A DNA stretch of 64,000 nucleotides from an uncultured Gammaproteobacteria bacterium (GCA_964531275.1 CAZHDZ010000003.1:33208-97207); one strand, 5' to 3'; counted from the first letter of the stretch, positions 4,079-59,324 are shown. Notes: generated from the sequence alone by a model not told the origin. A program made the numbers and translations.

Positions 4079-4105
4079 TGGTGGTATTATATACTAACAA
4101 AATTT
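4079..4105. promoter_or_regulatory. 27-bp divergent intergenic region with overlapping face-to-face -10 boxes (minus strand TATAAT 4091-4086, plus strand TATACT 4090-4095), implying leaderless or near-leaderless divergent transcripts
   Basis: Only 27 bp separate two divergent start codons (ATG 4078 on the minus strand, ATG 4106 on the plus strand). TATAAT ends 7 nt before the minus-strand ATG and TATACT ends 10 nt before the plus-strand ATG. Neither gene has a Shine-Dalgarno sequence. Confidence 0.35.
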
Positions 4106-5032
4106 ATGAAGGCCGCACTTATTACAACAGTACTTAATGAAGAAGATTCTATTGGAAAATTTTTGGATTCCATTGTTTCCCAAACGCTAATTCCATCCGA
4201 AATAATTATCGTTGATGCCGGCTCGAAGGATAACACGATTTCTATAATTAAAAAATACTCCAAAAAACTTCCTCTAAAACTGTTTATACATAAAGGTAAC
4301 CGTTCTACCGGAAGAAATTTTGCGATTAAAAAGACAACGAGTGAATATATTGCTGTAACTGATGTTGGATGTACTCTTGATAAATTTTGGTTTGAGAGAA
4401 TTACTACTCCCCTTGCTAATAATTGTGATGTTGTCGCAGGTTTTTATAAGCCAATAACGCTCAATGTTTTTGAAAAATCATTAGCCACTTATACCTGTGT
4501 GCCAATTGATAAAGTAACACAAGATTTTCTTCCCTCATCTCGTTCTGTCTCTTTTTCAAAAAAAGCATGGACTAAAGTGGGTGGTTATCCGGAGCATCTT
4601 GATACTTGTGAGGATTTGGTTTTCGCGTCGGCGTTAAAAGCAGCAGGATTGAGATTTTCAGTAGCCAAGAACGCTCTTGTGTATTGGCAGCAGCGGAAAA
4701 ACATCATTGAGGCTTCTTGGCAATTTTATAGTTATGCGCTTGGTGATGGAATGGCAGGATACTATAGAATCCAAACCCCGTTTCTTTTTGGTAGATATAT
4801 TTTATTGGCCATAATATTATTGGCTTTTGCACATGTAAAAGATGTGATGATATTTTGGATAATTTGTCTATTAGCCGTTGGATATCTATCTTGGTCAATT
4901 AAAAAAAATTATAGGTATGTTAGGCATCCATACGCTTTTGTGTATCTGCCAATACTGCAAGTTACGTCAGATATTTTTGTTATTGCAGGTACTACTAATG
5001 GGACTCTCAAGAGGATTTTGAAAGCGATTTAA
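4106..5032 (+). CDS. GT2 glycosyltransferase with two C-terminal TM helices, GtrB/DPM1-like polyprenyl-phosphate sugar transferase
   Basis: LITTVLNEEDSIGKFLDSIVSQT...IIVDAGSKDNT matches the GT2 N-terminal motifs (DxD region). A C-terminal hydrophobic hairpin is present as in GtrB. Confidence 0.7.
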   Translation: MKAALITTVLNEEDSIGKFLDSIVSQTLIPSEIIIVDAGSKDNTISIIKKYSKKLPLKLFIHKGNRSTGRNFAIKKTTSEYIAVTDVGCTLDKFWFERITTPLANNCDVVAGFYKPITLNVFEKSLATYTCVPIDKVTQDFLPSSRSVSFSKKAWTKVGGYPEHLDTCEDLVFASALKAAGLRFSVAKNALVYWQQRKNIIEASWQFYSYALGDGMAGYYRIQTPFLFGRYILLAIILLAFAHVKDVMIFWIICLLAVGYLSWSIKKNYRYVRHPYAFVYLPILQVTSDIFVIAGTTNGTLKRILKAI

Positions 5033-5855
5033 TATTTTTCATAGTGCAGATAAATGCCCATCCGAAAAGTATATTAAGCGGAAAATATTTGGAGAAAGGA
5101 TAAAGGGCACTTATAAGATTATATAAAGCATGCTTAGTACTTTTCTTATTCTTTATGTATCCCACTTTTGTTTTTATGGTTCCAGCAAAACCATACTCAT
5201 TAAAAAGGCTTTTTAAATAGAAAAATGTTGGTTCATTAATATGTTGTATATGTTCTGCATCTGTACGCGGATCTTTAGGGAGTGCATCATAGATTTTGTT
5301 AAAAAAAATTCGATCAAAAGCACGAATAATATTATTTATGGGTCTTATATACATCGGGTATGTATAGTTATGTAGAATTTTATTGGTTCCGGTATGAGCA
5401 AAGAATATCCCATTTGGCTTTAGGACTCTTTTTACTTCTTGCATCATTTTTTTCATTTCCTGCTTGTTGAGATGCTCTATAACATCTAGTGCTATAACCT
5501 TGTCGAAGAAATTGTCATCAAAATCAAGCTTCGTAGCATTCATCTCATAAAATTCTATTTTCTTTTTAATAGTATCGGGGAAAGTTTTCTTTGCTCTATT
5601 TGCAAGGGTAATGCCATCTTTTGAATAATCAATTCCAATAGCCATTTTTGCTCTTTTGCCTAAATTAATTGTTATATCGCCTCGGCCACATCCAATATCA
5701 AGAATAGTGTCGTTTTTTCGTACATCAATTATGGATAGTAGCTCCTTAACCTCTCCAGCAAGATTTTTTCCATGCGTTTGGTTAAATTCAGATGAGCCTA
5801 GGCAAACTTTCGTGTAGTAGTCTTTGTCATATACAGTTGAGGGAATGGTTTTCAT
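5007..5855 (-). CDS. Class I SAM-dependent methyltransferase
   Basis: ILDIGCGRGDIT (motif I GxGxG), ALDVIEHL (motif II) and VLKPNGIFF (motif III). Confidence 0.75.
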   Translation of the reverse strand: MKTIPSTVYDKDYYTKVCLGSSEFNQTHGKNLAGEVKELLSIIDVRKNDTILDIGCGRGDITINLGKRAKMAIGIDYSKDGITLANRAKKTFPDTIKKKIEFYEMNATKLDFDDNFFDKVIALDVIEHLNKQEMKKMMQEVKRVLKPNGIFFAHTGTNKILHNYTYPMYIRPINNIIRAFDRIFFNKIYDALPKDPRTDAEHIQHINEPTFFYLKSLFNEYGFAGTIKTKVGYIKNKKSTKHALYNLISALYPFSKYFPLNILFGWAFICTMKNIKSLSKSS

Positions 5856-7072
5856 TTAGAAAATAGTTTAAATAATCTGTAGAGATAATAAGGAGTAATT
5901 ATTACATAAGAAATTGTAATTGCGCTAGCAGCACCGGTTATTTGAAATGTAAAGACAGACGGAATTATTAAGATAAGGAGAACAACTAAATGAATAAAAT
6001 TAACCTTGGCTAAAGTGTGTGGTATGCCAACGGATAAAAATAATGGACCTATTGGGCCAATAGAGGCTCTTAGAAATCCATATATTGCAAGTATTCTCAG
6101 AACACCTGAAGCATCTACCCATTTCGGTCCAAAAAGGATAGTAATTATTTCTTTAGGAAAAAGCAGCAGGGGAATGTTTATGAGTAAGGCAAAGATTGTC
6201 GTAAAGAGTATATGTTTTAGGAACAGTCTTTTTAAGCGTTTTTTATCTGTGTGAATTTTTGAGTATACAGGAAACATTATTTGCGACAGGACATTTGTTA
6301 TTTCATTAAAGGCCGTTGAGCCTGTTTTAAAAGCAAGATCATAAAGGCCAAGTGATGTAGGCCCTAAGATTTTTCCAACAACAATAGTGTCCAGTTGCGT
6401 TGTAAGATACGTTGATAATCCACCTGCTGTTATCCATTTTCCGTACGAAACTAGTTTTTTAAAGTACTTTTTGCTGAAAGGCTTTGAAAAATCACGAGTT
6501 GTCATTGCATACGATGTTATTAGTTCTGCTACAGTGCCAAGTAAAAGACCCATAACAAGCGCTAGCGAACTCTTGAAATAGAATGACAGTAGGATTGTTG
6601 AAAAAGTAAGAACCGCAACAGGAATTAAGCGGAAAATAAATTCTTTTTCGAATTTTAAATCTTTTTGAAAGCCTATTACATAGGGGTTCTGTAAACCTTT
6701 CAATATAGGTATTAACGCTGCAATTAGCAGAAGACCAGTAATAGAAGAATTTTGGAAAAAGGTCGCTACGAAAGGAATGGATATGATTGTTGCCAAACTT
6801 AGGAGCATTCCTCTAAGCATTGTTACCATGAGAAATGTTTTTGCTATTTTTTTCATGTCAATCTGCATATGAATTACGGCATATGAAAATCCTAGATCTG
6901 TTACTGTGTCAAATATTGTAATAATTGACACAACGATTGCGAAAGCTCCGAAGTCTGCAGGTGTTAACAATCTTGTTACTACAATTAACTTAAGTATTAC
7001 CAATCCTTGAGTGGCAATTCGAAGTGCCATCATCCAGGCAGTGCTTTTAAAAATTAGATTTCTGTAGCTCAT
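5852..7072 (-). CDS. Polysaccharide/oligosaccharide flippase, MOP superfamily, Wzx-like
   Basis: 406 aa with about 12 TM helices. The N-terminal pattern ALRIATQGLVILKLIVVTRLLTPADFGAFAIV is typical of the Polysacc_synt (PST) family. Confidence 0.65.
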   Translation of the reverse strand: MSYRNLIFKSTAWMMALRIATQGLVILKLIVVTRLLTPADFGAFAIVVSIITIFDTVTDLGFSYAVIHMQIDMKKIAKTFLMVTMLRGMLLSLATIISIPFVATFFQNSSITGLLLIAALIPILKGLQNPYVIGFQKDLKFEKEFIFRLIPVAVLTFSTILLSFYFKSSLALVMGLLLGTVAELITSYAMTTRDFSKPFSKKYFKKLVSYGKWITAGGLSTYLTTQLDTIVVGKILGPTSLGLYDLAFKTGSTAFNEITNVLSQIMFPVYSKIHTDKKRLKRLFLKHILFTTIFALLINIPLLLFPKEIITILFGPKWVDASGVLRILAIYGFLRASIGPIGPLFLSVGIPHTLAKVNFIHLVVLLILIIPSVFTFQITGAASAITISYVIITPYYLYRLFKLFSK

Positions 7073-7169
7073 ATTTCGATTATCTTGTATGCTAGTTTTA
7101 ATTGCAAATAAGGGCTAATTCGATCTGAATTTCATTTGAAATTAGTATATAATTACCCAATCAAAAGGC

Positions 7170-15734: not shown

Positions 15735-17015
15735 TTATTTAATTGAACTTCCTTTTATAATTTTTGGTATCGGAAGAGGTATTATAAAATCTCCCTTGTA
15801 GCCTTTACTTACTAATTTAGGTATAAGCTCATCTGCAATATGCCATGAAAAAAGAAGAGCATATTCTGGCTGGTTCTTAAATAAGAGTCCCTCATCCAGT
15901 ACTGGGATGAGAGTTCCTGGCATATATTTTCCAGTTTTGTATGAACCTTTAACTTCAACGATGCAATCTAGAATAGAGTCGTCGAGTCCAGCATAGCTTG
16001 CCAGAGTTGTACCTCTTGAGGGAGCACTTATCCCATAGATTCTCTTACCCTTCTTTTTAATAGATGTAAGTAGCGTGTTAAGTTCAAGCTTGGAGATAAC
16101 AACTTTCCTTTTAAAACTCTCAAATGATTTTATGTCTGCAACCACACTCTTTTCTTTTTCTAGCAATTTCTTTACTGTTGGCTTCACCTCATATTTACCT
16201 TTCAAAGCAGCATATACGCGTATTGAGCCGCCATGTGAAGGAATTTCCTTCGCATGAAATACTTCAAGATCATGTTGTTTTAGTAGGTTGATAATACTAA
16301 TTAACGAATAGTACCTGATGTGCTCATGATAAATGGTGTCATACTGCACAGTTTTTATGAGTGGCATTAGATAATGAGATTCCGAAATAAAAACTCCATC
16401 TGGTGTTAGTAAATTCTTAATATTGTTTGTTAACTCATGAACATGTTCAATATGTGCATAAGCGTTTGTTAGTGTGACAATTTTAGCCTTTCCATATTTC
16501 TTAATGACATTCTTAGAAACTTGGGTTGTAAAGTAGTCGATAATTGTAGGTATCCCTTTCTCAATTGCGAGTTTTCCAATTTCCTCTGGTGTAATACCAA
16601 GAACTTTGTGTTTATCTTTGAAATTGCTAAGAAGATTTCCGTCGTTCGAGCCAATATCAATAATTAAATCGTTTTTAGAAAGTGATATAAGTTTTGACGA
16701 TTCTTCATATAATTCAGCGAAATTTTCTCTAAGAACTTTCGTGGTACTGCTAGTGTATGGGTAGCTTTTTGGAAATAAGATAGTTGGATCTACGATTAGA
16801 CCCATCTGCACTAAGTGGCATTTCTTGCAATAAAGTAAGTTTGCCGGAAAGCTAGGAGAGACTGTTGGAACCGTACCTATTACGGGCATTGTATTAACAG
16901 GAGGAAGATACCCTAAAAATAGTATTGAATAAAGTTTGTTATATCCGCATGACTGGCAAGAAGTTACGGGTAGACTTTGTCCTGTATTGATAGTCTTTTT
17001 AAGAGCGTCCTGCAT
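15735..17015 (-). CDS. NDP-sugar C-methyltransferase-like (TylCIII family: Zn-ribbon Methyltransf_13 plus Methyltransf_14 architecture)
   Basis: N-terminal CQSCGYNKLYSILFLGYLPPVNTMP...CKKCHLVQ Cys4 pattern. IIDIGSNDGNLLSNFK is the SAM motif I. Length 426 aa is typical of the family. Confidence 0.6.
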   Translation of the reverse strand: MQDALKKTINTGQSLPVTSCQSCGYNKLYSILFLGYLPPVNTMPVIGTVPTVSPSFPANLLYCKKCHLVQMGLIVDPTILFPKSYPYTSSTTKVLRENFAELYEESSKLISLSKNDLIIDIGSNDGNLLSNFKDKHKVLGITPEEIGKLAIEKGIPTIIDYFTTQVSKNVIKKYGKAKIVTLTNAYAHIEHVHELTNNIKNLLTPDGVFISESHYLMPLIKTVQYDTIYHEHIRYYSLISIINLLKQHDLEVFHAKEIPSHGGSIRVYAALKGKYEVKPTVKKLLEKEKSVVADIKSFESFKRKVVISKLELNTLLTSIKKKGKRIYGISAPSRGTTLASYAGLDDSILDCIVEVKGSYKTGKYMPGTLIPVLDEGLLFKNQPEYALLFSWHIADELIPKLVSKGYKGDFIIPLPIPKIIKGSSIK

Positions 17016-17052
17016 TTAAGAAAAATATTGTATAACATTGAAGGCACTATAT

Positions 17053-22355: not shown

Positions 22356-23345
22356 GTGTATAATCGTATGAACATGTTGGCGAATAGCTATACCCAAAGC
22401 GATCGAGTATTTTTTAAAGGAAAAAATATTTTGCTAACTGGTGGAAATGGCTTTCTAGGAAGATACGTCAAAGAACAACTCATCCAACTTAAGCCTCGAT
22501 CTATTTTAATTCCGGATTCCAAGAAAGATGATTTAAGAATTGTTAAAAATGTAAAAAGACTTTTAAAGGACATTGATATTGTAATTCACCTAGCAGCAAA
22601 CGTGGGTGGGATAGAATATAACAAGAACTATCCGGGAACGCTTTTCTATGAGAACCTCATAATGGGTACTCAGCTGATGGAGGAAGCAAGAAAAGCTAGT
22701 GTGATTAAATTCGTTGCTCTTGGCACTATATGCGCATATCCAAAATTTGCGCCTATACCATTCAAAGAAGAGGATATCTGGAATGGTTATCCAGAAGAGA
22801 CAAATGCCCCTTATGGATTAGCAAAGAAAATGCTTCTTGTCCAATCACAGGCTTATCGTGCTCAGTTCAATTTCAATTCAATTTATCTCTTGCCCGTTAA
22901 TTTATATGGACCTGGTGACAACTTTAATGAGAAATCTTCACATGTAATTCCGGCATTAATCAAGAAGATCGAATTAGCAAAAAATAATAACATTCCTGTT
23001 GTTGAAGTCTGGGGAACTGGTAATGCAACGAGAGAATTCTTGTATGTGGAGGATTGTGCTCGCGCAATAGTTTTGGCTACTGCAAGATATGAGAGTTCGG
23101 AGCCAGTTAATTTAGGGGCCGGTTTTGAAATTTCAATTAAGGAACTTGCCTTAAAGATAAAAAAAATATGCAATTACAAAGGTGAATTGAAGTTTGATGC
23201 TAAGATGCCTGACGGACAACCAAGAAGGATGCTTGATACAAAAAGAGCTGTTAAAGGATTTGGATTTAAGGCTGTAACACCATTTTCAACTGGGCTTAAA
23301 AATACTGTGGAATGGTATAAGAAGAATTACAAGAAATTAGCTTAA
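22356..23345 (+). CDS. GDP-L-fucose synthase-like NDP-4-keto-6-deoxy-sugar 3,5-epimerase/4-reductase (SDR). The track start is GTG 22356; ATG 22368 or 22374 is more likely.
   Basis: HLAANVGGI; ALGTICAYPK; NAPYGLAKK (YxxxK); LPVNLYGPGDNF; SHVIPALIKK. These match the Fcl/WcaG pattern from memory. Confidence 0.6.
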   Translation: MYNRMNMLANSYTQSDRVFFKGKNILLTGGNGFLGRYVKEQLIQLKPRSILIPDSKKDDLRIVKNVKRLLKDIDIVIHLAANVGGIEYNKNYPGTLFYENLIMGTQLMEEARKASVIKFVALGTICAYPKFAPIPFKEEDIWNGYPEETNAPYGLAKKMLLVQSQAYRAQFNFNSIYLLPVNLYGPGDNFNEKSSHVIPALIKKIELAKNNNIPVVEVWGTGNATREFLYVEDCARAIVLATARYESSEPVNLGAGFEISIKELALKIKKICNYKGELKFDAKMPDGQPRRMLDTKRAVKGFGFKAVTPFSTGLKNTVEWYKKNYKKLA

Positions 23346-24059
23346 TTTCGCTGTGCCTGCCTTTATTATAGACTGCAATATTAGCGCCCCGTCTTTTATT
23401 GGCGAAACTTGAGAGTGGCCAGTATTTCTTCTCGTATAGCTTACCGGTACTTCTACTAGCTTGTATTTAAGTCTTACGCTTTTTATAACAGTTTCTGCTT
23501 CGTATCCGAAATGACGTTCTTTTATTTTAAGTTTAGTGAATTTATTTCTTCTAATAGCTTTAAATCCGGCAAGAGAATCTGTAATGTATCTACCGCATGC
23601 AATTGATGTTGCAACCGAAAGTAAAAAATTTCCTAGAGTTCTGACAAATGGTGCATCCGCTTGGTTTTTTCGTTTTCCAATGGCTATGTCAGCTCCTTTA
23701 TCAAGAGCGTTGACTAAAAGTTGGATTTCAGTTGGTCTGAATTGGTAATCAGCATCTATTTGAACAATATATTCACCATTTGATTTAAGAGCTGCATCGC
23801 GGAAGTCAATTCCTTTACCTCTTTTTTTACCAAATTCAAAAACAATAGCTTTTTCTTTCTTTGCAATTTCTACAGTTCTATCTTGTGAACCACCATCAGC
23901 AACAACAATTTCATATGTGTAATTTTTTTTCATAGTATTAATTTGGCGAATCATCTTGCCAATACTTTTTTCTTCGTTGTAGGTGGGGAGTATGATGCTA
24001 ACTTTAGGAATAATTTTTTTACCTGTTTTCATCTGTAAGATTTTACTATAATATACCAT
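23337..24059 (-). CDS. GT2 DPM1/GtrB-like glycosyltransferase (soluble); an alternative start lies at 24032
   Basis: VSIILPTYNEEKSIGKMI...VVADGGSQDRT...IDADYQ (GT2 motifs). Confidence 0.7.
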   Translation of the reverse strand: MVYYSKILQMKTGKKIIPKVSIILPTYNEEKSIGKMIRQINTMKKNYTYEIVVADGGSQDRTVEIAKKEKAIVFEFGKKRGKGIDFRDAALKSNGEYIVQIDADYQFRPTEIQLLVNALDKGADIAIGKRKNQADAPFVRTLGNFLLSVATSIACGRYITDSLAGFKAIRRNKFTKLKIKERHFGYEAETVIKSVRLKYKLVEVPVSYTRRNTGHSQVSPIKDGALILQSIIKAGTAKLS

Positions 24060-24077: not shown

Positions 24078-24992
24078 ATGAAAAGAATTATAGTTACCGG
24101 AGGCTCAGGATATGTGGGGGCAGAGGTTGTAGAGTTGCTTATTAAAAAAAAGTATTCAGTTTTGGTTGTTGATAAGCAATCTATCTACAAAAATTCAAAA
24201 GCCACATTTCTAAAAAAAGACCTTTTATCTGAGAAAGGCTTAGCGCGTGTTTTTCAACAAACTGATTCAGTAATACACTTAGCTGCAGAAGTCGGTGGTG
24301 TTTCTTTTGCTAATAATTATCCTGCAACAATCATTCACAACAATGCATTAATTGATTTGAACTGCATCAAAGCTGCGGCTGCTGCACATGTTAGAAAATA
24401 TTTGTATGTTTCGAGCTCTCTTGTCTATGAACAAGCAATAAAATTTCCGCTAAAGGAAGCTGATACTTTACATATTCCGCCCCCACACTTGTCCTACGGT
24501 GCAGAAAAGCTTTTTGGGGAGTCGTTATGTGAAGCTTTTTTTCAAGAGTTTGATTTGCAATATGCTGTATGTAGGCTTTTTAATGTATATGGAATAAATG
24601 CTGCGGGTTTTGGAGATCCCAATGGACATGTTATCCCAGATATCATTAGCAAGGTGAAAGAGTCATCTGGAAAGGTTGAGATCTGGGGGAGAAAAAATAT
24701 AAGAAGAAATTTCACACATGTTTCGGACATTGCACGGGGAATTGTAGCGGCACTCGAGAATGAAAATAAAAATGAAGTATTTAATATTGCAGATAAAAAT
24801 GAGTACTCAATTGAAGATGTGACATTGACTTTATGGAAACTTTTAAGAAAGCCTGGATTGCCAAATTTTTATTATGTTAAGAAAAACAAACAAGACGTAT
24901 TAAGAAATTTTGCATCAGTTAATAAAGCAATGAAGATACTAAATTGGAGAACTAAAACGTCCTTGCAAGATGGATTAAAAGCTATGATTTAA
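24078..24992 (+). CDS. NAD-dependent epimerase/dehydratase (SDR)
   Basis: VTGGSGYVGAEV Rossmann motif; YVSSSLVY; LSYGAEK (YxxxK). Confidence 0.7.
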   Translation: MKRIIVTGGSGYVGAEVVELLIKKKYSVLVVDKQSIYKNSKATFLKKDLLSEKGLARVFQQTDSVIHLAAEVGGVSFANNYPATIIHNNALIDLNCIKAAAAAHVRKYLYVSSSLVYEQAIKFPLKEADTLHIPPPHLSYGAEKLFGESLCEAFFQEFDLQYAVCRLFNVYGINAAGFGDPNGHVIPDIISKVKESSGKVEIWGRKNIRRNFTHVSDIARGIVAALENENKNEVFNIADKNEYSIEDVTLTLWKLLRKPGLPNFYYVKKNKQDVLRNFASVNKAMKILNWRTKTSLQDGLKAMI

Positions 24993-25927: not shown

Positions 25928-27424
25928 ATGGCAGTAGGCAAAACAGTTATTATCGTTTTTCTTTTATTTATTGTCTCAATACTAACTCGAATCCCGTTGG
26001 TTGAGAATATGCATTCTCATACCGACAGCTCTTCTATTACCTTGGCCCTTGTTAATTACGACTTAAATCAAGAAACTCCTGCGCCACCTGGCTATCCACT
26101 GTATTTAACATTCGGAAAACTCATCTATTATATAGTAAGAGATCCTCATCAGGCTTTAATTATAGTAAGCATTATATCAACTGCATTAGGTGCCCTTGGC
26201 TTTTACTTTTTGGGGAAATATTTAGACCATGAAAACACCGGAATTATAAGTGCAATTGTTTTCTTGTCTTCACCCGCAATCTTTTTCTTTGGTCTAACTA
26301 TTTATCCTTACTTGTTCATGATAGGAATCGAAGTTTTATTCGTTTTCTTTGCCTACATTACAATTTTTAAGAAAAGAAATACAGCTATTTTTATTGGCGT
26401 CTTTTATGCTTTACTTTTGGGAATAAGGCCTCAGGAGATTCTTTTAACCCTCCCCCTAGCCGTATATGTAATCTATAAATTGTCAAATAAAGCGAAGCTT
26501 CATGCTCTTGTTGCATTTGGAGTCATAACCATAGCATGGTTAATGCCCTTCATTTTTGTAAATGGTGGAGTAAGGAATTACTATTATATTCTAAGCAATG
26601 GAGCTTCTGAAGCATTGCCATTACCATCTTTTAATCCACTTATTTATAAACGTTTTGAGCTTCTGAACGGGGCATTTGTAACCCTGGGTGTTTCAAGTAT
26701 TTTCGCCATTTATCAGCTTATAAAAATGCTGATTGGGAATAAAAAAACTAATTATCTTATTCTCCTTGCATTATGGGCAATACCTTCGCTTCTGTTTAAT
26801 TTATTCATCAGAACGGAGCACGCTGGTTATCAACAAGGTTATTTAATGCCATGTATTTTATTAGCAAGTATTGCATTGAGGAGGGTATATTCTGTTAGGA
26901 AAATTCTGGCAATCGTATGCATTGCAATTGTTGTTCTGATCAATCTTTATATATTTTTTTACAACAGGGACCCTCTCTATCAAAAGCCTTATAGGCAGTC
27001 CTCATTTCACTATACAGACATTGTGAGAAACGATTATGTTCTCTCCGAAAAATTTAAATATATCAAGAGTAACTTTGCGCCTGATAAGACCATTATATTT
27101 GCAGGACCCTATTTCTGGAGACATGTAAGGTACTATTTACCTGAATTCGAAATATATATGATAGGGCGATTATTTGAAGAAGAAGATTCTAACCTGCTTA
27201 TAAAAGCATATGGATTGCGCTTTGAAAAAATTTGGAATACCAACAGAACTCTAGATTTACCAGATAAGGTAACAAGCATAGTCATTTTTGATGATGAGGG
27301 AAGTAGTTTTGAAATAAATAAAAAACGAATTGTAAAATTTAAAGGCATAACTAGTTTGACAATTGTTCCGGTTTCAAGGGCAATGCAGATTGGATATCAT
27401 AAAATTTATACAGTTATTAAATGA
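25928..27424 (+). CDS. Polytopic membrane protein (about 11 TM helices) with a C-terminal soluble domain, possible PMT/ArnT-like GT-C
   Basis: Hydrophobicity pattern. An N-terminal periplasmic loop carries PPGYPLYL. No firm motif was found. Confidence 0.35.
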   Translation: MAVGKTVIIVFLLFIVSILTRIPLVENMHSHTDSSSITLALVNYDLNQETPAPPGYPLYLTFGKLIYYIVRDPHQALIIVSIISTALGALGFYFLGKYLDHENTGIISAIVFLSSPAIFFFGLTIYPYLFMIGIEVLFVFFAYITIFKKRNTAIFIGVFYALLLGIRPQEILLTLPLAVYVIYKLSNKAKLHALVAFGVITIAWLMPFIFVNGGVRNYYYILSNGASEALPLPSFNPLIYKRFELLNGAFVTLGVSSIFAIYQLIKMLIGNKKTNYLILLALWAIPSLLFNLFIRTEHAGYQQGYLMPCILLASIALRRVYSVRKILAIVCIAIVVLINLYIFFYNRDPLYQKPYRQSSFHYTDIVRNDYVLSEKFKYIKSNFAPDKTIIFAGPYFWRHVRYYLPEFEIYMIGRLFEEEDSNLLIKAYGLRFEKIWNTNRTLDLPDKVTSIVIFDDEGSSFEINKKRIVKFKGITSLTIVPVSRAMQIGYHKIYTVIK

Positions 27425-40425: not shown

Positions 40426-40454
40426 ATTTTAAGTGAGTGCAGAATTTAAGTCAA
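40426..40454 (-). promoter_or_regulatory. Sigma70-like promoter candidate for the atp operon (-35 TTGACT, 16-nt spacer, -10 TAAAAT), ending about 12 nt before the atpB ATG
   Basis: Minus-strand reading: TTGACTtaaattctgcactcacTTAAAAT. The genome is AT-rich, so chance matches are likely. Confidence 0.3.
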
Positions 40455-43691: not shown

Positions 43692-44621
43692 TTAGGCAAC
43701 CTGTTGTAATTGTTGAAATGAGAATCGATCTTGATCGGGGACAGCAATAAAAGTCGTATCGCGTCCTGCATTTTTCGCTTCTGCAACTGCAGCACTTGCT
43801 CGGCTTAATAATTGCAAACCGTTTTCCCCTGGTTGTAATTTTGTTGCCCCAAAGCTTAAGGTAACGACTTTGGGAATTCCTTCCTCTGATATCTCATTGT
43901 CTTTTAAAGTGTCTTTTGGGTGCATTTCTTGTAATGCCTTTGCACTCATTTCTTTATAAAGGCGTGAATATCTTCCGGTAATTGATGCTATTTTTTCTTC
44001 ATCTGTTGCTTCCGGTTTTTCTTCTATTCGAACATTGTTAAGATTTATTAACTGTACAAACTCTTCCCCACCAAAACGTGAGATTAATTCGTCATTTCTT
44101 GCCAAATTGCCCATAAGTCTTAAAAGATTGTCACCACCTGTGTGATTGTAGATTGTATTTATGTATTTAAATCTGTCTAGGTCAATAAATACAGCCCATA
44201 AATTACTGTTAGGATCCTGATGTGATGTTTCTACTTGGGAATCTATAGTCTCTTCAAGCCATCTCCGATTTTTCAAACCAGTAAGCTGATCCGTATAGCC
44301 TTGAATTTCTATACCGGCTCTTCGTAATGCATCCTGTTCTGCGAATTTTGATTTACTGACAAAATCTATTCCATTTTCAAGCATTAGATCTTGAACATCC
44401 GCTAGATGTCTCCTGAATATCCCATCATAGTAGTCATCTAGTTCGGCTGGAACTGCTTCTAGTTTATCTAATTGGTCATTTTCTTCACGATCAAAAATAT
44501 TAAGTTTTCCTTTCGTAGGGCCGAACCGATCCCACCATCTGTCAACTATAATTGCTGCCTCAGGGGTTCCTGCTTCGGGTATATGGGGGGGTGTGATTTT
44601 TGCTCCTAAACCTTCAGTCAT
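43692..44621 (-). CDS. GGDEF-domain diguanylate cyclase with an N-terminal domain of unknown function of about 120 aa; no TM helices
   Basis: DQLTGLKNRRWLEE; FIDLDRFKYINTIYNHTGGDNLL; RFGGEEF (a GG[DE]EF active-site motif); SFGATKL...AVAEAKNAGRDT. Confidence 0.8.
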   Translation of the reverse strand: MTEGLGAKITPPHIPEAGTPEAAIIVDRWWDRFGPTKGKLNIFDREENDQLDKLEAVPAELDDYYDGIFRRHLADVQDLMLENGIDFVSKSKFAEQDALRRAGIEIQGYTDQLTGLKNRRWLEETIDSQVETSHQDPNSNLWAVFIDLDRFKYINTIYNHTGGDNLLRLMGNLARNDELISRFGGEEFVQLINLNNVRIEEKPEATDEEKIASITGRYSRLYKEMSAKALQEMHPKDTLKDNEISEEGIPKVVTLSFGATKLQPGENGLQLLSRASAAVAEAKNAGRDTTFIAVPDQDRFSFQQLQQVA

Positions 44622-44625: not shown

Positions 44626-46020
44626 TCATTCTAGCATCTTAAGAAGGGTTTTTCTAATCTGATCCATGTCTTTGGCTTCTGGTAATGACTTTCTGATAGC
44701 ACCTATCAGATATCCCAACACCTGAACTTTACCTGCTTTGTATTCTGTAACAATCTGTGAATTTTCACTTATAACTTTACTAATTCCTGCGGTAAGTTTG
44801 GCCTCATCAAAACTTTCTATAGTGTTTTCTTCTTTAATTGTAGTAACTAGTGCAGTGGGATCTATCTTTTCCAAATCCGGTTTTTTATTAATAACAAAAT
44901 TTGCTATTGTTTTTGCATCAACATGTAAATTCTTGCCCTCAGAAACTGCAGCTTCAAAGAAATTACAAAGAACAATATCCCTGGTTAAGATCTCAGCATT
45001 GTATTCCGAAAGACCAAATTCGTTAACAAATCGAATAACTCGAGCTTGTGGAAGTTCTGGAAGCGATTGCTTAAGTTCTTCGACTTTACTATCAGAAAAA
45101 TTAATTGGGGGAAGATCTGGCTCTGGAAAATATCTATAGTCATGAGCTTCCTCTTTTGATCTTTGGCTTACTGTTTTGTTTTTGAATTCATTCCAGCCCC
45201 GCGTTTCCTGAAGAGGAACCTCTCCTTTATCAAGAAGCTCTTTATGTCTTTTTTCTTCAAACTTAATAGCATTTTCAACAAATTTAAACGAATTGATATT
45301 TTTTACCTCGACTTTATATTTTGCTAATTCCTTTTGTCCTGGAGGTCTTAGCGAAATATTTGGTTCAAGTCTCATTTGCCCTTTGTCCATATCTGCATCG
45401 CTTACTCCCAGGAAGCGGATGATTTTTTGTAATTCCTGCAGAAATATTCTTGCCTCTTCACCGGTTCTAATGTCAGGTTCTGTGACTATCTCAACGAGAG
45501 GTACACTTGATCTGTTGAAGTCAATGAGGCTTACTTCTTTCCCGTCAACTGTTGCATGGGTAAGTTTACCTGTATCTTCTTCCATATGTACCCTTGTAAT
45601 GCCAATTCTTTTTATTGCTCCGTTAACTTTGATATCAAGATATCCCTTTTCACCAAAAGGATGTAAAAATTGTGACGTCTGAAATCCCTTAGCAAGATCG
45701 GGATAAAAATAATTTTTCCTTTCAAAATATGAGTCTTGATTCACCATGCAATTAAGTGCAAGTCCAATTTGAACACAGGACTCTATTGCTTTTTGATTGG
45801 TGTAGGGGAGGGCACCAGGAAGTCCTAGGCAAATCGGACAAGTTTTGGTATTGGGTTTATCTGACAGATTTGGAACAGGGCAGCTACAGAACATTTTTGT
45901 AGTAGTTGCAAGCTCTACGTGGATTTCCATCCCTACAACTGTTTCGTAATCGCTGACGCTCATAGCGCTGACGCTTAAAATTGGTGGTTGGTGGTTGGTG
46001 TTTGGTGATTGGGAATTCAT
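44626..46020 (-). CDS. gatB: Asp/Glu-tRNA amidotransferase subunit B
   Basis: GMEIHVEL, MEEDTGKL and the C-terminal GatB_Yqey-like tail. The start codon overlaps the gatA stop (ATGA). Confidence 0.9.
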   Translation of the reverse strand: MNSQSPNTNHQPPILSVSAMSVSDYETVVGMEIHVELATTTKMFCSCPVPNLSDKPNTKTCPICLGLPGALPYTNQKAIESCVQIGLALNCMVNQDSYFERKNYFYPDLAKGFQTSQFLHPFGEKGYLDIKVNGAIKRIGITRVHMEEDTGKLTHATVDGKEVSLIDFNRSSVPLVEIVTEPDIRTGEEARIFLQELQKIIRFLGVSDADMDKGQMRLEPNISLRPPGQKELAKYKVEVKNINSFKFVENAIKFEEKRHKELLDKGEVPLQETRGWNEFKNKTVSQRSKEEAHDYRYFPEPDLPPINFSDSKVEELKQSLPELPQARVIRFVNEFGLSEYNAEILTRDIVLCNFFEAAVSEGKNLHVDAKTIANFVINKKPDLEKIDPTALVTTIKEENTIESFDEAKLTAGISKVISENSQIVTEYKAGKVQVLGYLIGAIRKSLPEAKDMDQIRKTLLKMLE

Positions 46021-47721: not shown

Positions 47722-47750
47722 AGTATACTGTCTTGAGGCTATCGTAGCAA
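47722..47750 (-). promoter_or_regulatory. Promoter candidate for gatCAB (-35 TTGCTA, 17-nt spacer, -10 TATACT), ending 7 nt before the gatC ATG, which implies leaderless mRNA
   Basis: Minus-strand reading: TTGCTAcgatagcctcaagacagTATACTtataggcATG. Confidence 0.3.
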
Positions 47751-49137: not shown

Positions 49138-49175
49138 ATTTTAGTTTTCGATCACTAACCGCCATTTACTGATCG

Positions 49176-50459
49176 CTAAAGTATCGATTTTCCCGAAATT
49201 AATTTTCTTATTTCAAGCATTGCTGAATATGTCGGAAGAATTGTTAACCTTTGTCCTTCAGGGGTATTATTGAAAGCGTTCTGGTATGATGCGTTAAGAT
49301 TGTCACTCACTTCATGGGTGACACCTGCAAAAAGAAGTCTATTGGCCATATCATAAGCTCTATCTCCCGATACGAATACTTTTATTTTTGTCTTTTTTAA
49401 TACTTCAAAGTCTACATCCCAAATCCATGAAATATCTCTTCCATCGGGTATCCTGTCATTAAGAAGAATTAAAAGATTCGAGCTTTTATTTTCAATAGCT
49501 ACTTTTATACTTTCATTAAATCCTGTTGGATTTTTTGATAACAAATACATTATTCGCCTATTATTTATAGAAACTTCCTCCTGCCTCCCGAAGGCAGGCC
49601 GAAGTGTTATGAGAGAATTGAGAATATCCTTTTCTTTATATTCAAATTCGTGTCTTAGAACGGTAGCTGCAGCGTTAAGGTTATACTGATTATACGTTCC
49701 TAATAATTGAGAAGGGATTTCCAAGTTTTCTGATTTAGGATTTGAGTAAGAGCAGTTTGGGCATATGTAATTTCCGAGATGAGAGTAGGAAATCGTAATG
49801 TAGTCAAGCTGGAAATTGCATTTAGGACAAGTTGTGGAATCAACAGCATGACTGAGCGAGCGATTATTCTTATATTTTGGCGGAACGGTAAAGTAGATGT
49901 GTTTGGGAGCACGCGAGGCTACATACGCTATGAGAGGGTCATCTGCATTTGCTACAACGGTTGTTGACGTGCTCAATTTTTCGAATGAATGTATCCATTT
50001 TTCTGCTGTTGTATTTACTTCCCCGTAACGGTCAAGTTGATCACGGAAAAGGTTGAGAAGAATAATTGCGTTTGGATTTGGAATTTCTTTAAGAATTACA
50101 GGAAGAGAGTTCTCATCTGTTTCAAAAATTATAACTTTTTTACTGAGTTTTCCTGAAAGATTTACGTCGGCAACAAGAGTAGAGGCTAATCCATTTATAA
50201 GATTTGCACCAGAATTATTTGTAAGTACTGAATGCCCAATTTGTTCAAGTGCGTGAGAAAGAGCCTTTGTTGTAGTGGTTTTGCCATTGGTTCCGGCAAC
50301 AAGGATAATTTTCAGATCCGGATTCTTTGATATAACTTTTCTAATGAGCTTTGGATTTATTTTTAAGGCAATGTGGCCGGGCCAGGTTGATCCAGATCCT
50401 AGATTTATTATTTTGCCTATTTTAAGAACAGTTTTACCTAACAGTAGACCATGACGCAT
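49176..50459 (-). CDS. murT: Lipid II isoglutaminyl synthase Mur-ligase-like subunit MurT
   Basis: VAGTNGKTTTTKAL, FRDQLDRYGEV, ADDP, the Cys4 ribbon CPKCNFQLDY...CPNCSY, and the C-terminal DUF1727 motif DGRDISWIWDVDFE. Confidence 0.9.
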   Translation of the reverse strand: MRHGLLLGKTVLKIGKIINLGSGSTWPGHIALKINPKLIRKVISKNPDLKIILVAGTNGKTTTTKALSHALEQIGHSVLTNNSGANLINGLASTLVADVNLSGKLSKKVIIFETDENSLPVILKEIPNPNAIILLNLFRDQLDRYGEVNTTAEKWIHSFEKLSTSTTVVANADDPLIAYVASRAPKHIYFTVPPKYKNNRSLSHAVDSTTCPKCNFQLDYITISYSHLGNYICPNCSYSNPKSENLEIPSQLLGTYNQYNLNAAATVLRHEFEYKEKDILNSLITLRPAFGRQEEVSINNRRIMYLLSKNPTGFNESIKVAIENKSSNLLILLNDRIPDGRDISWIWDVDFEVLKKTKIKVFVSGDRAYDMANRLLFAGVTHEVSDNLNASYQNAFNNTPEGQRLTILPTYSAMLEIRKLISGKSIL

Positions 50460-50477
50460 AACTTTTAGTATACCAAA

Positions 50478-52013: not shown

Positions 52014-52042
52014 TTATGACATATTTCAGGTTTGATTTCAAA

Positions 52043-54087: not shown

Positions 54088-54187
54088 GCAAATACAATAA
54101 CTTGTAAAGCTCGTCTAATAAAACGATCTACAGGAAAAATAACAATCTGCTCAGTCTGCTCACATCTTCTGCCTGGAAAGGAGTTTT

Positions 54188-54880
54188 ATGCCAAAAAAAT
54201 CTACAAAACAAGAAGAAAATGCTTTTGACATTCAAAAGCTGATGCAAAATTCGGATTCATACAAAAGTCTGATATACGGAATCGTAACCGTCGTTGTGCT
54301 TTTTATCGTAATTGCGCTTGGAGTAAGAACCTTGTCTCAAAATAGAGCAGAGGTTGATAACCAAGCAGCGATGACAGATGAAGCAAAAGACGTTCTTACA
54401 AGTTCTTACACAGTGCAAGAAGGGGAAACTCTTTGGAGCATTGCTGAAAAATCATACGGTGATGGATACGCTTGGGTTGAAATAGCTAAGGCAAACAAAA
54501 TATCCGAAGCTGACTCAATCGAGAAGGGCCAAAAACTTATCATTCCAAAAATTACACCAACAAAAGTAGAAGTTGCAATGGTATCGCCAACTACAGTTCC
54601 AACTGAAGTTGTTAAGCCAACTGCACCATCTACCCCTACGCCTGTTGTTACAAAAGCACCACAAGCTATGGATAATGGTGCACAAAAGGGTATGGAGGAC
54701 GCTAATGTAATGCAAAAAATTACAGCCAATACATACACTGTTGTTGCTGGTGACAATCTTTGGACTATTGCTGTTAGAGCATATGGAGACGGATACAAAT
54801 GGGTAGATATTGCCAAGAATAACAATCTTGATAATCCTAACCTTATTTTCTCCGGAAATGTCCTTAAGCTTTCTCGTTAA
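54188..54880 (+). CDS. Membrane-anchored protein with two LysM domains (peptidoglycan binding)
   Basis: N-terminal TM helix. Two LysM repeats: YTVQEGETLWSIAEKSYGDGYAWVEIAKANKI and YTVVAGDNLWTIAVRAYGDGYKWVDIAKNNNL. An AGGAG ribosome-binding site lies 7 nt upstream. Confidence 0.85.
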   Translation: MPKKSTKQEENAFDIQKLMQNSDSYKSLIYGIVTVVVLFIVIALGVRTLSQNRAEVDNQAAMTDEAKDVLTSSYTVQEGETLWSIAEKSYGDGYAWVEIAKANKISEADSIEKGQKLIIPKITPTKVEVAMVSPTTVPTEVVKPTAPSTPTPVVTKAPQAMDNGAQKGMEDANVMQKITANTYTVVAGDNLWTIAVRAYGDGYKWVDIAKNNNLDNPNLIFSGNVLKLSR

Positions 54881-55056
54881 CCTTGGCTGCGCTAAGCTAA
54901 TCTTGGCTTCGCTAAGCTAATCTTGGCTTCGCTAAGCTAATCTTGGCTGCGCTAAGCTAATCTTGGCTGCGTTAAGCTAATCTTGGCTGCGCTAAGAAAA
55001 TCTTGGCTTCGCTAAGAAAATCTTGGCTTCGCTAAGAAAATCTTGGCTTCGCTAAG
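54881..55056. repeat. Tandem direct repeat, nine copies of a 20-bp unit TCTTGGCT(G/T)CGCTAAG(CT/AA)AA; its reverse complement contains TTAGCGCAGCCAAGA
   Basis: Read directly. It begins one nt after the LysM gene stop codon. Confidence 0.9.
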
Positions 55057-55204
55057 GTAGCTCGGTAATAGGTTGTTCGCTGCAAGGAGCGCAACGCTAC
55101 TTAATCGTGGTGGTGTATACTATTGGAGTCATTGAGACGGCGAGAAGTAAAGTTTTTCGAATATCTATTTTGCTGTGCAAATTAGATTAAGTTCAGTGAA
55201 CGCT

Positions 55205-55223
55205 CGTTAAGCTTCGCTTAACG
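55205..55223. promoter_or_regulatory. Perfect 8-bp inverted repeat with a 3-nt spacer, CGTTAAGC-ttc-GCTTAACG, 13 nt upstream of tRNA-Gly; operator- or hairpin-like
   Basis: Read directly. The half-site resembles the tandem-repeat core (TTAGC..GCYAA). Confidence 0.4.
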
Positions 55224-55235
55224 TGAGATGCTTCC

Positions 55236-55306
55236 GCGGGGTTCGTATACCGGTAGTATACTACCTTCCCAAGGTAGGGAAGCCAGTTCGATTCTGGTAC
55301 CCCGCT
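55236..55306 (+). tRNA. tRNA-Gly (anticodon CCC)
   Basis: Cloverleaf folded by hand: acceptor GCGGGGT/ACCCCGC, D-stem GTAT/GTAT (two G-U wobble pairs) with loop ACCGGTA, anticodon stem CTACC/GGTAG with loop TTCCCAA, T-arm GCCAG/CTGGT with loop TTCGATT, discriminator T. Confidence 0.85.
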
Positions 55307-55316
55307 CACGTATAGT

Positions 55317-55637
55317 ATGAAGAGCCATATAGTAGAAACTCTGACTGGTCTTGGCATATGCTTATTGGGATTTGTCCTCGGATTTTTAAATCTCGTGGAT
55401 ATTACTAATGCATCACTTTTTTCCTCACTTATAGCGCTTTGTCTTATTATCGTAGGAACAATAGTTCTTTTCAAAGCAGGGAGACGAGATAGACACGCCG
55501 TAAAATTACCTCCTGTAAGTTATGACAGAAACGAAAAATCTTTGGTGGACAAGCATAATGAATTTGCGCATCACTACGCTAAGACATCTCAAATGAGAGA
55601 TAAATTAAAAGTTATTAAACACTCAGGACACGATTAA
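55317..55637 (+). CDS. Small two-TM membrane protein, paralogue 1 of a tandem pair
   Basis: Two hydrophobic helices, then KAGRRD...LVDKHNEF...RDKLKVIKHSG. It shares KAGR.D / (V/L)(D/E)KHN / RDKLK with the next ORF. Confidence 0.5.
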   Translation: MKSHIVETLTGLGICLLGFVLGFLNLVDITNASLFSSLIALCLIIVGTIVLFKAGRRDRHAVKLPPVSYDRNEKSLVDKHNEFAHHYAKTSQMRDKLKVIKHSGHD

Positions 55638-55673
55638 TTGCAATAATATTTCCAATTTACTATTCTTGTATGT

Positions 55674-56024
55674 ATGAAGAAAATACTTCTTGGTAGCTTA
55701 ATTGGCCTTCTATTATTGGGAGGAGGGTTTGTTAGTGTTTATTTGGGAATGCAGGGAATTTCTGAAGGAGGTTCACCGATACTCCTAGTTGTCGGACTTA
55801 TTTCATTTTGCGGCGGTCTGGGGGTGTTATATAAGGCTGGAAGAATTGATGCATTTAAATCGAAGTTTGCCGAAACTCCAGCTGTCGCTACGCCTGAAGG
55901 TGAAAGTGTTTTGGAAAAGCACAATAAAATCATATCTGAATGGAATGAGACAAATAATAAAAGAGATAAGCTTAAGATGCTCGAAGCAGCCGGTGCTGCA
56001 GACGAAGGAAAGACATTAAGCTAG
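55674..56024 (+). CDS. Small two-TM membrane protein, paralogue 2 of a tandem pair
   Basis: Same architecture and shared motifs as 55317..55637. Confidence 0.5.
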   Translation: MKKILLGSLIGLLLLGGGFVSVYLGMQGISEGGSPILLVVGLISFCGGLGVLYKAGRIDAFKSKFAETPAVATPEGESVLEKHNKIISEWNETNNKRDKLKMLEAAGAADEGKTLS

Positions 56025-56070
56025 GATTGTGGTAACTTATTAGGTTAGGATTGAGTTTTTAAACCTGTTA

Positions 56071-57594: not shown

Positions 57595-57625
57595 ACGCTA
57601 GTATAGGATGCAATCAAATTCCTCG

Positions 57626-57654
57626 TTGACACGATTTGGCCTATTTGATAATAT
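57626..57654 (+). promoter_or_regulatory. Strong sigma70-like promoter candidate for pyrG (-35 TTGACA, 17-nt spacer, -10 TAATAT). The predicted start site coincides with the GTG start codon at 57660, implying leaderless mRNA.
   Basis: TTGACAcgatttggcctatttgaTAATATaaatcGTG. An in-frame TAA at 57654-57656 fixes the start codon at 57660. Confidence 0.4.
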
Positions 57655-57659
57655 AAATC

Positions 57660-59324
57660 GTGCCGCTCAAGAAATTAAATACTAAATACATTTTCGTGTC
57701 TGGAGGAGTAATCTCCGGAATCGGAAAAGGACTCACTGCCTCATCGATATCTTTTCTTCTCAAATCAGCAGGATACAAAGTAGCTCCAATTAAATTCGAG
57801 AATTATCTTAATCTTGATGCCGGAACAATAAATCCAATAGAGCATGGTGATCCATTTCTTTGCGAAGATGGAACCGAAGCGGATATGGATATAGGTTCTT
57901 ACGAAAAATTCCTCTCAGAGGATATGGGTAAAGAAAATTTCGTAACAATGGGTCGTATTTACCAAACAGTTATTGATCGAGAAAGAAGGTTTGAATATAA
58001 CGGGGAAGACGTAGAAGCAATCCCGCATATTACAGATGAAATCATATCTCGGATTAAGCATGTTGCTAAGGTTAAAGACGCAGATATCGTTGTTATAGAG
58101 CTTGGCGGAACTGCAGGAGAATATCAGAATCTCTTTTACTATGAAGCTTCACGCATCCTTACCTTAAAAAATCCTGGTGATGTTATTCATGTGCATGTGA
58201 GTTATGTACCAACACCCTCCCATCTTGGAGAGCCTAAGACGAAACCAACACAGCTTTCGGTAAGAACTCTCAATTCTATGGGAATTCAGCCAGACTTCAT
58301 AATTGCACGTTCTGCAAGATATTTAGATCAAAGAAGAAGAGATCGTTTTGCGCTTTTCTGCAACATGCATCCTGAGGATATTATTTCAAATCCAGATGTT
58401 GATAGTGTGTATGAAATTCCATTGGTTTTGACTAAGCAGGGTCTTGAAAAGCGTATCTTTATGAAGCTTGGACTTCCTCAGAAAACACCGGCTCTTGCTT
58501 CTTGGGAAAAGTTAGTTGAGAAAATAAAATCTAAGAAAAGCAAGACGGTTGAAATCGCTATTGTCGGCAAATATTTTGGCACTGGAGAATATCAGTTGAG
58601 GGATTCATACGCTGCATTGCTGGATGCTATAGAGCATGCTTCGTGGAGCGCTGATGTGGAGGTTGTTACTCGATGGGTTAATGCAGAAAAAGTTGAGAAA
58701 GAAGGAGCTGAGGCAGTTATCGGAAAGCCAGATGGGATCATTGTTCCAATTGGATGGGGCGAGCGCGGCTCAGAAGGGATGATAAAAGCAGTAGAGTATT
58801 CTCTTGATAAAAAAATACCTTATCTTGGACTTTGCTACGGTATGCAACTTGCTGTTGTTGGATTTGCTCGTCATGTTCTGGGATGGAGAGATGCCAATAC
58901 AACTGAGAATGACCAAAAAACAAAACACCCAGTTATTCATATGATAGAAAATCAAAAAGAGCTTATGGAACGAAGAGCCTACGGAGGAACGATGAGATTG
59001 GGAGCATGGGACGCTTTGGTAAAAGAAGGTACAAGAGCATATGATATTTACGGAAAAGCAGGCCAATTCATAAAAGGAAAGAAGGGTTTGACTTCCGAAA
59101 GACATAGGCATCGTTACGAATTCAATAATGCATTCGCTAAAGAAATCGAAGAAAAGGGCCTTATTATATCTGCAAGATCAGTTGTCGAGAATTTAGTTGA
59201 AATTATTGAGCTTCCTAAGAGTGACCATCCATTCTTCATGGGTACCCAGGGTCACCCAGAATATAAGAGTAGACCTCAGAGTCCACATCCGCTGTTTGTA
59301 GAGTTCCTCAAAGCAACTAAGTAA
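57660..59324 (+). CDS. pyrG: CTP synthase (GTG start)
   Basis: N-terminal KYIFVSGGVISGIGKG (synthetase P-loop-like) and a C-terminal GATase domain with GLCYGMQ (the catalytic Cys). 554 aa. Confidence 0.95.
   Translation: MPLKKLNTKYIFVSGGVISGIGKGLTASSISFLLKSAGYKVAPIKFENYLNLDAGTINPIEHGDPFLCEDGTEADMDIGSYEKFLSEDMGKENFVTMGRIYQTVIDRERRFEYNGEDVEAIPHITDEIISRIKHVAKVKDADIVVIELGGTAGEYQNLFYYEASRILTLKNPGDVIHVHVSYVPTPSHLGEPKTKPTQLSVRTLNSMGIQPDFIIARSARYLDQRRRDRFALFCNMHPEDIISNPDVDSVYEIPLVLTKQGLEKRIFMKLGLPQKTPALASWEKLVEKIKSKKSKTVEIAIVGKYFGTGEYQLRDSYAALLDAIEHASWSADVEVVTRWVNAEKVEKEGAEAVIGKPDGIIVPIGWGERGSEGMIKAVEYSLDKKIPYLGLCYGMQLAVVGFARHVLGWRDANTTENDQKTKHPVIHMIENQKELMERRAYGGTMRLGAWDALVKEGTRAYDIYGKAGQFIKGKKGLTSERHRHRYEFNNAFAKEIEEKGLIISARSVVENLVEIIELPKSDHPFFMGTQGHPEYKSRPQSPHPLFVEFLKATK

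Follow-up and report, generated by a model that had tools for sequence, protein, structure and literature searches.

Here we analyzed a stretch of 64,000 nucleotides (the window; GCA_964531275.1 CAZHDZ010000003.1:33208-97207) deposited as DNA of an uncultured Gammaproteobacteria bacterium, together with related loci, and found that the -10 box of a sigma-70-type promoter often ends only 5-8 nt before a start codon. Most probably, about 30% of operon-first genes, a large minority, begin immediately next to such a promoter, from which a leaderless mRNA is predicted on the basis of sequence. The geometry itself, its enrichment, its promoter character and its evolutionary conservation were observed directly in these loci. 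The first-pass annotation of the window had noticed this geometry at four sites (a divergent gene pair, gatC, pyrG and the atp operon) and had proposed that a substantial fraction of genes in this organism may be translated from leaderless or very-short-leader transcripts. Enrichment, promoter character and conservation all supported this proposal, although two of its genes (atpB and a glycosyltransferase gene) fitted only a short leader, and leaderless transcription is still a prediction.

Enrichment of -10 boxes directly upstream of start codons

The sample used to measure enrichment consisted of the window and 80 related pyrG loci (L001-L080), 1.26 Mb in total. Genes were called by the longest-open reading frame (ORF) rule, which takes the first start codon after a stop. 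Genes with a divergent neighbor or with a gap of at least 25 nt were considered operon-first, and those with a gap of <15 nt operon-internal. ORFs rejected by the caller and defined by the same first-start-after-stop rule were used as sham ORFs. Proteins were grouped into families by BLASTP, and family-level counts include one gene per family, with pyrG excluded.

It had been suggested in the first-pass annotation that -10-like hexamers should be enriched just upstream of start codons. When the 80 related loci were added, this enrichment was strong and specific. The 3' end of TANNNT lay 5, 6, 7 and 8 nt from the start codon with frequencies of 0.116, 0.164, 0.086 and 0.097, respectively, compared with about 0.03 elsewhere (mode, 6 nt), whereas the profile was flat for sham ORFs and low for internal genes. 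At the family level, TANNNT was found at 5-8 nt in 131 out of 334 operon-first families (39%), in contrast to 36 out of 334 at a control position of 30-33 nt (Fisher p=8.5e-18) and to 19 out of 130 operon-internal genes (15%; p=1.5e-7). A small residual at 6 nt upstream of internal genes may be due to stop codons located upstream and to internal promoters. Over background, the excess was about 30% of operon-first families for 5-8 nt and about 40% for 5-12 nt, and the family-weighted profile had a minor shoulder at 9-12 nt. The start codons of the representatives having the 5-8 nt geometry were ATG (107, 82%), GTG (11) and TTG (13). The peak remained when intergenic gaps of at least 70 nt were considered (strict motif, 0.212 versus about 0.04), and thus it is not an effect of coding and non-coding composition.

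The same relationship was observed when we started from high-scoring promoters: the next start codon was 5, 6, 7 and 8 nt away in 59, 48, 27 and 37 cases, respectively, whereas each bin between 10 and 60 nt held just 0-7 cases. The signal was also seen in 19 loci that come from more distant Microgenomates-like genomes and do not carry the pyrG element described below. A metagenome scan with atpB returned mostly matches of only 30-40% identity from mixed taxa, which served for promoter comparison and as a heterogeneous control; in these loci the peak was weak. In a 50-kb locus of Escherichia coli analyzed with the same pipeline, 5-6% of genes had the hexamer at 5-8 nt and no peak could be observed.

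Alignment of the sites on the hexamer revealed TAtAAT, a TG at -3/-2 and a TTG at -23 to -21, the latter corresponding to a 17-nt spacer. The aligned sites therefore have the parts that define a housekeeping sigma-70 promoter (a -35 element, a spacer of 16-18 nt, a -10 box and an optional TG), and these features identify them as sigma-70 promoters rather than a translation motif. A TA-rich hexamer close to start codons might otherwise be read as a signal for translation, such as an A/U-rich enhancer or a Kozak-like context recognized by the ribosome or S1, and it is true that A-rich sequence lies upstream of all genes and that T is favored at -1 in operon-first and internal genes alike (51%, versus 33% in sham ORFs). 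Such a signal is very unlikely to explain the peak, given the low share of the motif in internal genes compared with operon-first genes and its association with an extended -10 TG and, across a 17-nt spacer, with TTG, both of which are recognition features of RNA polymerase. As a separate observation on the -1 position, G was found there in only 6-9% of genes, versus 19% of sham ORFs; this preference is common to both gene classes and not specific to the promoter geometry.

Position of promoter matches in the window

Promoter-like sequences could simply be chance matches in AT-rich DNA. Within 20 kb of the window, 57 sites matched the promoter consensus at 9 of 12 positions, compared with 55 +/- 8.5 in shuffled sequences, which means that there was no overall excess and that only the position of a match is informative. 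With regard to position, full -35/-10 matches ended 5-8 nt before the start codon in 4 out of 33 operon-first genes, where 0.19 were expected (Poisson p=4.6e-5), and at 5-12 nt in 6 out of 33, where 0.38 were expected (Poisson p=3e-6). No excess was observed for full matches at 13-40 nt (2 out of 33 versus 1.33 expected, p=0.38). The unremarkable total, together with the lack of significance of loose TANNNT in the window, is what chance would give, but the positional bias in the window, the much stronger bias across families, the distances conserved in orthologs and a perfectly conserved 27-bp region (see below) make chance an extremely improbable explanation.

The pyrG start region

At pyrG, the first-pass annotation had described TTGACA-17-TAATAT placed immediately before a GTG start codon, and reading of the sequence confirmed this. 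The region (57626-57662, plus strand) consists of TTGACA (57626-57631), a 17-nt spacer with TG at 57646-57647, and the -10 box (57649-57654), in the order TTGACA-17-(TG)aTAATAT-AAATC-GTG, so that 5 nt separate the box from the GTG at 57660. An in-frame TAA (57654-57656) lies one codon (ATC) before the GTG.

The element TTGAC-N17-TGnTAnnAT-AAATC-GTG was kept in 62 out of 81 pyrG loci, with GTG as start codon in 59, ATG in 2 and GTA in 1 of them. In 61 of these 62 loci the start was in frame with the KYIFV motif of the protein, and the ten extension lengths found (9-39 nt) contained no in-frame stops. No alternative start codon was present between the GTG and KYIFV(SGG), and translation of pyrG must therefore begin 5 nt from the -10 box. 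In loci lacking the element, the gene opens directly with ATG-KYIFV. The AATC after the -10 box, the GTG and the C at +4 were each at least 95% conserved in 61-62 loci, whereas the rplS and murT promoters conserve just the -10 and -35 elements, and thus the pyrG start region is far more constrained. The second codon always encodes P, H, Q or L, all of which have C-initial codons in these loci; an invariable C in front of varied residues suggests a constraint at the nucleotide level on the first four transcribed bases. On the basis of this arrangement, the pyrG mRNA is predicted to be leaderless and to begin with GUG.

In Bacillus subtilis, pyrG is controlled by CTP-sensitive reiterative transcription, with GGGCTC as the initially transcribed sequence and an attenuator in the leader (bioRxiv 10.1101/732214). 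The two genes are alike in having a constrained initially transcribed sequence with a G start and a C at +4 (here GTGC, at least 95% in 61 loci). They differ in that the conserved bases here are the start codon and the first base of codon 2, from which no slippage would be expected. We considered reiterative transcription of the B. subtilis type for pyrG of the window and ruled it out: GTGC contains no G run, and there is no leader or attenuator, as the ORF begins at the GTG.

A conserved 27-bp divergent promoter region

The description of two divergent start codons 27 bp apart with overlapping -10 boxes was borne out by direct reading of the sequence. The intergenic region (4079-4105) has boxes on both strands and separates the gene for a PTPS-related membrane protein (2333-4078, minus strand) from that for a family-2 glycosyltransferase (4106-5032, plus strand). 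The box of the former, TATAAT (4091-4086, minus strand), lies 7 nt from the ATG (4078-4076), and this gene is predicted to be leaderless. The box of the latter, TATACT (4090-4095, plus strand), overlaps the minus-strand box by 2 bp and lies 10 nt from the ATG (4106-4108); an alternative plus-strand box, TGgTATTAT (4082-4090), is located 15 nt before the same ATG. From these distances, the glycosyltransferase mRNA is predicted to have a leader of about 3-9 nt, that is, a very short leader rather than strictly none.

Five codons upstream of the PTPS-related gene there is an in-frame TAG, the intervening codons include no start, and the N-terminus MLDPQK of its protein corresponds to MIDPQK in one of the related polysaccharide-biosynthesis loci (L161). 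In the glycosyltransferase, the Pfam GT2 domain begins at residue 6, which leaves no room for a downstream start. All 27 positions of the intergenic region were identical in L161 (4082-4108) and in a second such locus, L162 (3332-3358), even though the overall identity of the loci is only about 73.5% over 10 kb, and 71% and 77% in the flanking 150 nt. In about 330 nt scanned around the region, it was the sole fully identical stretch of 27 nt. In deeper orthologs of the divergent pair, synteny was lost or the gap was larger (107 bp in L165); the arrangement is limited to close relatives.

Promoter geometry at other genes of the window

By eye, about 9-10 of the 33 operon-first genes of the window fitted this architecture. 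For gatC, the promoter TTGCTA (47750-47745)-17-TATACT (47727-47722; whole promoter 47722-47750, minus strand) ends 7 nt before the ATG (47714-47712), as first described, and a leaderless mRNA is predicted. Likewise, murT is predicted to be leaderless from its extended -10 box, TGgTATACT (50467-50475, minus strand), 7 nt from the ATG at 50459. The promoter of rplS, which encodes ribosomal protein L19 (TTGAAA-18-TATAAT, 59759-59788, minus strand), is located 8 nt from the ATG at 59750 and was the top match in the 40-60 kb part of the window (11/12). Three further promoters on the minus strand were each 6 nt from their ATG: TTGCAA-17-GATAAT (7079-7107) of a flippase/polysaccharide biosynthesis gene (5852-7072, ATG at 7072), both boxes of which are retained in L161 at a distance of 7 nt; TAGAAA-17-(TG)cTAGAAT (44628-44656) of a GGDEF-domain gene (43692-44621, ATG at 44621); and TTGAAG-17-(TG)aTACCAT (62030-62058) of a gene for a 7TM-transglutaminase-like membrane protein (ATG at 62023), which is kept in L001, L004 and L007. 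It should be noted that the promoter of the GGDEF gene lies within the 3' end of the upstream gene and would be an internal leaderless promoter in an apparent operon.

For the atp operon (40426-40454, minus strand), the boxes TTGACT (40454-40449) and TAAAAT (40431-40426) and the distance of 12 nt to the atpB ATG (40413-40411) agreed with the first description; the spacer is 17 nt, not 16. The atpB leader is predicted to be about 5-6 nt, very short rather than strictly absent.

The distance between the -10 box and the start codon was kept among orthologs of gatC, rplS, murT, pyrG and atpB despite diverged surroundings. Most gatC orthologs had TATAAT, TACAAT or TATACT 6-8 nt before the ATG with differing flanks, murT orthologs retained TATAAT/TATACT at 6-8 nt, and rplS orthologs retained TGTATAAT at 7-8 nt. 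In the atpB relatives, TTGACy-17-TAmAAT was located 6-11 nt before an ATG with which the same N-terminus (MxS[LF]) begins, and the 12 nt of the window is at the long end of their range.

Two other observations concern this geometry at the margins. In the region 55236-56024, a tRNA-Gly(CCC) is followed by two small paralogous ORFs (55317-55637 and 55674-56024) with no Pfam match, whose relatives have TTGmAA-17-TAyTCT 7 nt before an ATG or GTG, that is, a variant -10 box in the leaderless position. Upstream of typA/bipA (62060-63895), the region 63896-63946 (minus strand) carries an extended -10 promoter, TGCTATAAT, and a 42-nt leader that contains a GC-rich hairpin (GGACACG..CGTGTC) and ends with seven consecutive T abutting the ATG. 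L001 has the hairpin as well; it might act as an attenuator or terminate transcription of the upstream gene.

Start codon assignment and leader length

If the start codons were misplaced and the true ones lay further downstream, the mRNAs would have ordinary leaders. The longest-ORF rule does tend to over-extend genes, and TTG starts are common outside the leaderless class. Nevertheless, the pyrG start is in frame in all but one of the element-bearing loci, with ten extension lengths free of stops and no other start before KYIFVSGG; the GT2 domain extends almost to the glycosyltransferase N-terminus; and the N-termini of atpB, the PTPS-related protein and GatC are conserved from residue 1-2. 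For the polysaccharide-biosynthesis loci L161-L167, independent database gene calls put the starts mostly 6-15 nt from -10-like boxes, and they agree with ours for the L161 orthologs. In addition, sham ORFs called under the same rule show no peak, and miscalled starts should weaken the peak rather than produce it. Misplacement is therefore an unlikely general explanation.

The question of leader length is closer. Transcription might begin a few bases upstream of the start codon throughout, giving leaders of 2-10 nt and SD-independent initiation by the 30S subunit on A/U-rich, unstructured 5' ends. Such distances do occur: besides atpB (12 nt) and the glycosyltransferase gene (10 or 15 nt), the -10 box TACAAT (17027-17032, minus strand) of a C-methyltransferase gene is 11 nt from its ATG at 17015, which places it in the short-leader class, and the genes at 25928 and 7170 have distances of 15-16 nt. 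The shoulder at 9-12 nt, the peak at 9-16 nt in L161-L167 and the atpB orthologs, in which the same promoter lies at 6-11 nt so that the distance is not rigid, point in the same direction, and as most genes have no SD, SD-independent initiation must exist in any case. On the other hand, the main peak is sharp (5-8 nt, mode 6), which is the usual distance from a -10 box to the transcription start site (TSS) and leaves no room for a leader, and it matches the 6-8 nt of leaderless genes in Mycobacterium tuberculosis (PMC6028130). We regard short leaders as an improbable account of the main peak.

Thus, the reading we prefer is that of leaderless mRNAs, and the TSSs and the mode of translation that we infer would be as follows. 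A housekeeping sigma-70-type promoter (TTGACA-like, 17-nt spacer, often TG, TAtAAT) would end 5-8 nt before ATG or GTG, and RNA polymerase would start at, or 1-2 nt from, the first base of the start codon. Such an mRNA would have neither a 5' leader nor an SD, and the ribosome with initiator tRNA would bind the 5'-terminal start codon directly, as in Actinobacteria and Deinococcus. In a second, smaller class, a -10 box 9-16 nt upstream would give leaders of about 2-10 nt, too short for SD pairing, as proposed for atpB and the glycosyltransferase gene at 4106. Other genes would be mostly leadered or operon-internal, and mostly without an SD, with a minority using a canonical SD (for example, the LysM gene).

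Several points weigh against this interpretation. The TSSs are predicted from the distance between the -10 box and the start codon. At pyrG, the G is only 5 nt past the -10 box, at the near edge of the usual TSS range, and transcription starting 2 nt further on would destroy the start codon. The 80 loci are all centered on pyrG and represent a clade-wide sample of one neighborhood, not of whole genomes, and the gene-calling rule is crude, matching only 27 out of 42 annotated E. coli genes exactly. In L161-L167 the strict -10 motif peaked at 9-16 nt rather than at 5-8 nt (46 genes, partly redundant). Finally, in the window alone, loose TANNNT was found in 11 out of 32 genes versus 7 out of 32 at the control offset, a difference that was not significant.

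Shine-Dalgarno usage

As stated in the first-pass annotation, no SD motif is present at any of the five genes of the four sites. In the clade sample, SD 4-mers were found in 8% of operon-first genes (background 6%) and in 19% of internal genes (background 10%), both of which are lower bounds because our start calls under-count SDs (29% in E. coli versus 57% with annotated starts). Among operon-first genes with the -10 geometry, the share was 2%. The rarity of SDs across the clade means that their absence is a clade property and not special to the genes of the four sites. Internal genes showed a weak enrichment of canonical SD k-mers (AGGAG, GGAGG, GAGGT and GGTGA) at 5-11 nt, which suggests that a canonical anti-SD has been kept and is little used. 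Retention of a canonical anti-SD agrees with a previous study, in which the anti-SD motif was detected less often only in a Parcubacteria subgroup of the Candidate Phyla Radiation (CPR) (Tsurumaki et al. 2022, PMC9297842). A search for the 3' end of 16S rRNA in L001-L080 gave only two approximate matches, neither of which was rRNA.

The contrast case in the window is the LysM gene, whose SD had been noticed before and is indeed present (GGAAAGGAG at 54175-54183, plus strand, 4 nt before the ATG at 54188). The earlier conclusion that leaderless and SD-dependent modes coexist is supported by this gene, but it understates a third class, namely leadered genes without an SD. An example is the divergent pair 23337-24059 (minus strand) and 24078-24992 (plus strand), the ATGs of which are 18 bp apart. 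The TATAAT of each gene is located within the opening codons of its partner, at 27 and 25 nt from the start of the gene that it serves, and the two promoters would yield divergent transcripts that overlap and have SD-less leaders of about 18-20 nt.

Lineage of the window

The window belongs to Candidatus Levyibacteriota (Levybacteria), a lineage of the Microgenomates group within Patescibacteria/CPR. Its pyrG relatives with 75-94% amino acid identity are mostly named Candidatus Levyibacteriota or carry placeholder titles, and a few have other Patescibacteria names. Many of the closest relatives (L001, L004, L006 and others) were deposited under the title of uncultured Gammaproteobacteria bacterium, and these titles look like placeholder mislabels: their pyrG and neighboring genes are 87-94% identical to the window and to pyrG of L003, which is assigned to Candidatus Levyibacteriota. 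The window has a GC content of 36-37%, a coding density of about 95% and very short intergenic regions. Pfam supported the assignment of gatC, murT, rplS, the atp genes, dnaE, typA and a polysaccharide-biosynthesis cluster, and an Rfam scan of the window found two tRNAs and no other match.

Comparison with known leaderless systems

The architecture described here is known from group C of the GeneMarkS-2 classification (Lomsadze et al. 2018, PMC6028130), typified by Actinobacteria and Deinococcus-Thermus. In that group, the first genes of operons have a Pribnow box 6-8 nt before their starts, internal genes do not, and the share of operons predicted to be leaderless is 25-50%. The present lineage resembles group C in its -10 peak at 5-8 nt, its restriction to operon-first genes with low values at internal genes, and its predicted leaderless share of about 30%. 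It differs from the named lineages of that group in being a low-GC (about 37%), small-genome CPR bacterium and in showing a clear -35 element and a clear extended -10 TG. In M. tuberculosis the other operons have a ribosome binding site (RBS) at the same 6-8 nt, whereas here the other genes are mostly without an SD. The main text of that paper does not mention 'Parcubacteria', 'Microgenomates' or 'Saccharibacteria', and a literature search covering CPR, Patescibacteria, Saccharibacteria, Microgenomates and Parcubacteria yielded no paper on leaderless mRNAs in these groups. We regard the present lineage as a new one for a known type of organization, the leaderless architecture of group C.

The evidence differs in kind from that available elsewhere. 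Leaderless transcriptomes have been mapped experimentally by Cortes et al. (2013) for M. tuberculosis and by de Groot et al. (2014) for Deinococcus deserti (cited in PMC6028130 and PMC12641261). In those species TSS mapping was combined with proteomics, whereas the present analysis uses sequence geometry and comparison. Mycobacteria also translate GUG-initiated leaderless mRNAs, to which the GUG start of pyrG here would correspond.

Bacteroidota (group B of GeneMarkS-2) share with the present lineage the rarity of SDs and an A-rich context before starts. In that group, however, a single motif that is neither an SD nor a promoter precedes all genes, including internal ones, whereas here a TATAAT promoter is found before operon-first genes only. 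Neither a motif before all genes nor a promoter of the Bacteroidota type (-7 TAnnTTTG/-33 TTTG) was found here; the sites are of the TATAAT type with a 17-nt spacer to TTG.

A more far-reaching view combines these observations. Leaderless transcripts and a near-abandoned SD would be the default in Microgenomates, and perhaps in much of CPR, in connection with reduced ribosomes. The start codon would at the same time supply the initiating nucleotide of the transcript, and the pyrG sequence TAnnAT-AAATC-GTG-C would act as a sensor of nucleoside triphosphates (NTPs) that couples transcription initiation of the CTP synthase gene, and its leaderless translatability, to GTP/CTP pools. We consider this combination doubtful as a whole, and the NTP-sensing role of the G-initiated leaderless pyrG transcript is speculation.

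Genomes of CPR/Patescibacteria are annotated almost wholly by automatic gene callers. If the leaderless interpretation is true, start calls scored by RBS would be unreliable in these organisms, and a rule based on the -10 box would correct many N-termini, as illustrated by pyrG, which starts 8-13 codons before the canonical MKYIFV. Two compact and conserved objects, the 27-bp bidirectional promoter and the invariant GUG start of pyrG, offer cases on which the prediction could be tested. The interpretation would also add a lineage with reduced ribosomes to the Actinobacteria and Deinococcus as bearers of leaderless architecture, and would thus bear on whether this architecture is ancestral or has been derived repeatedly.

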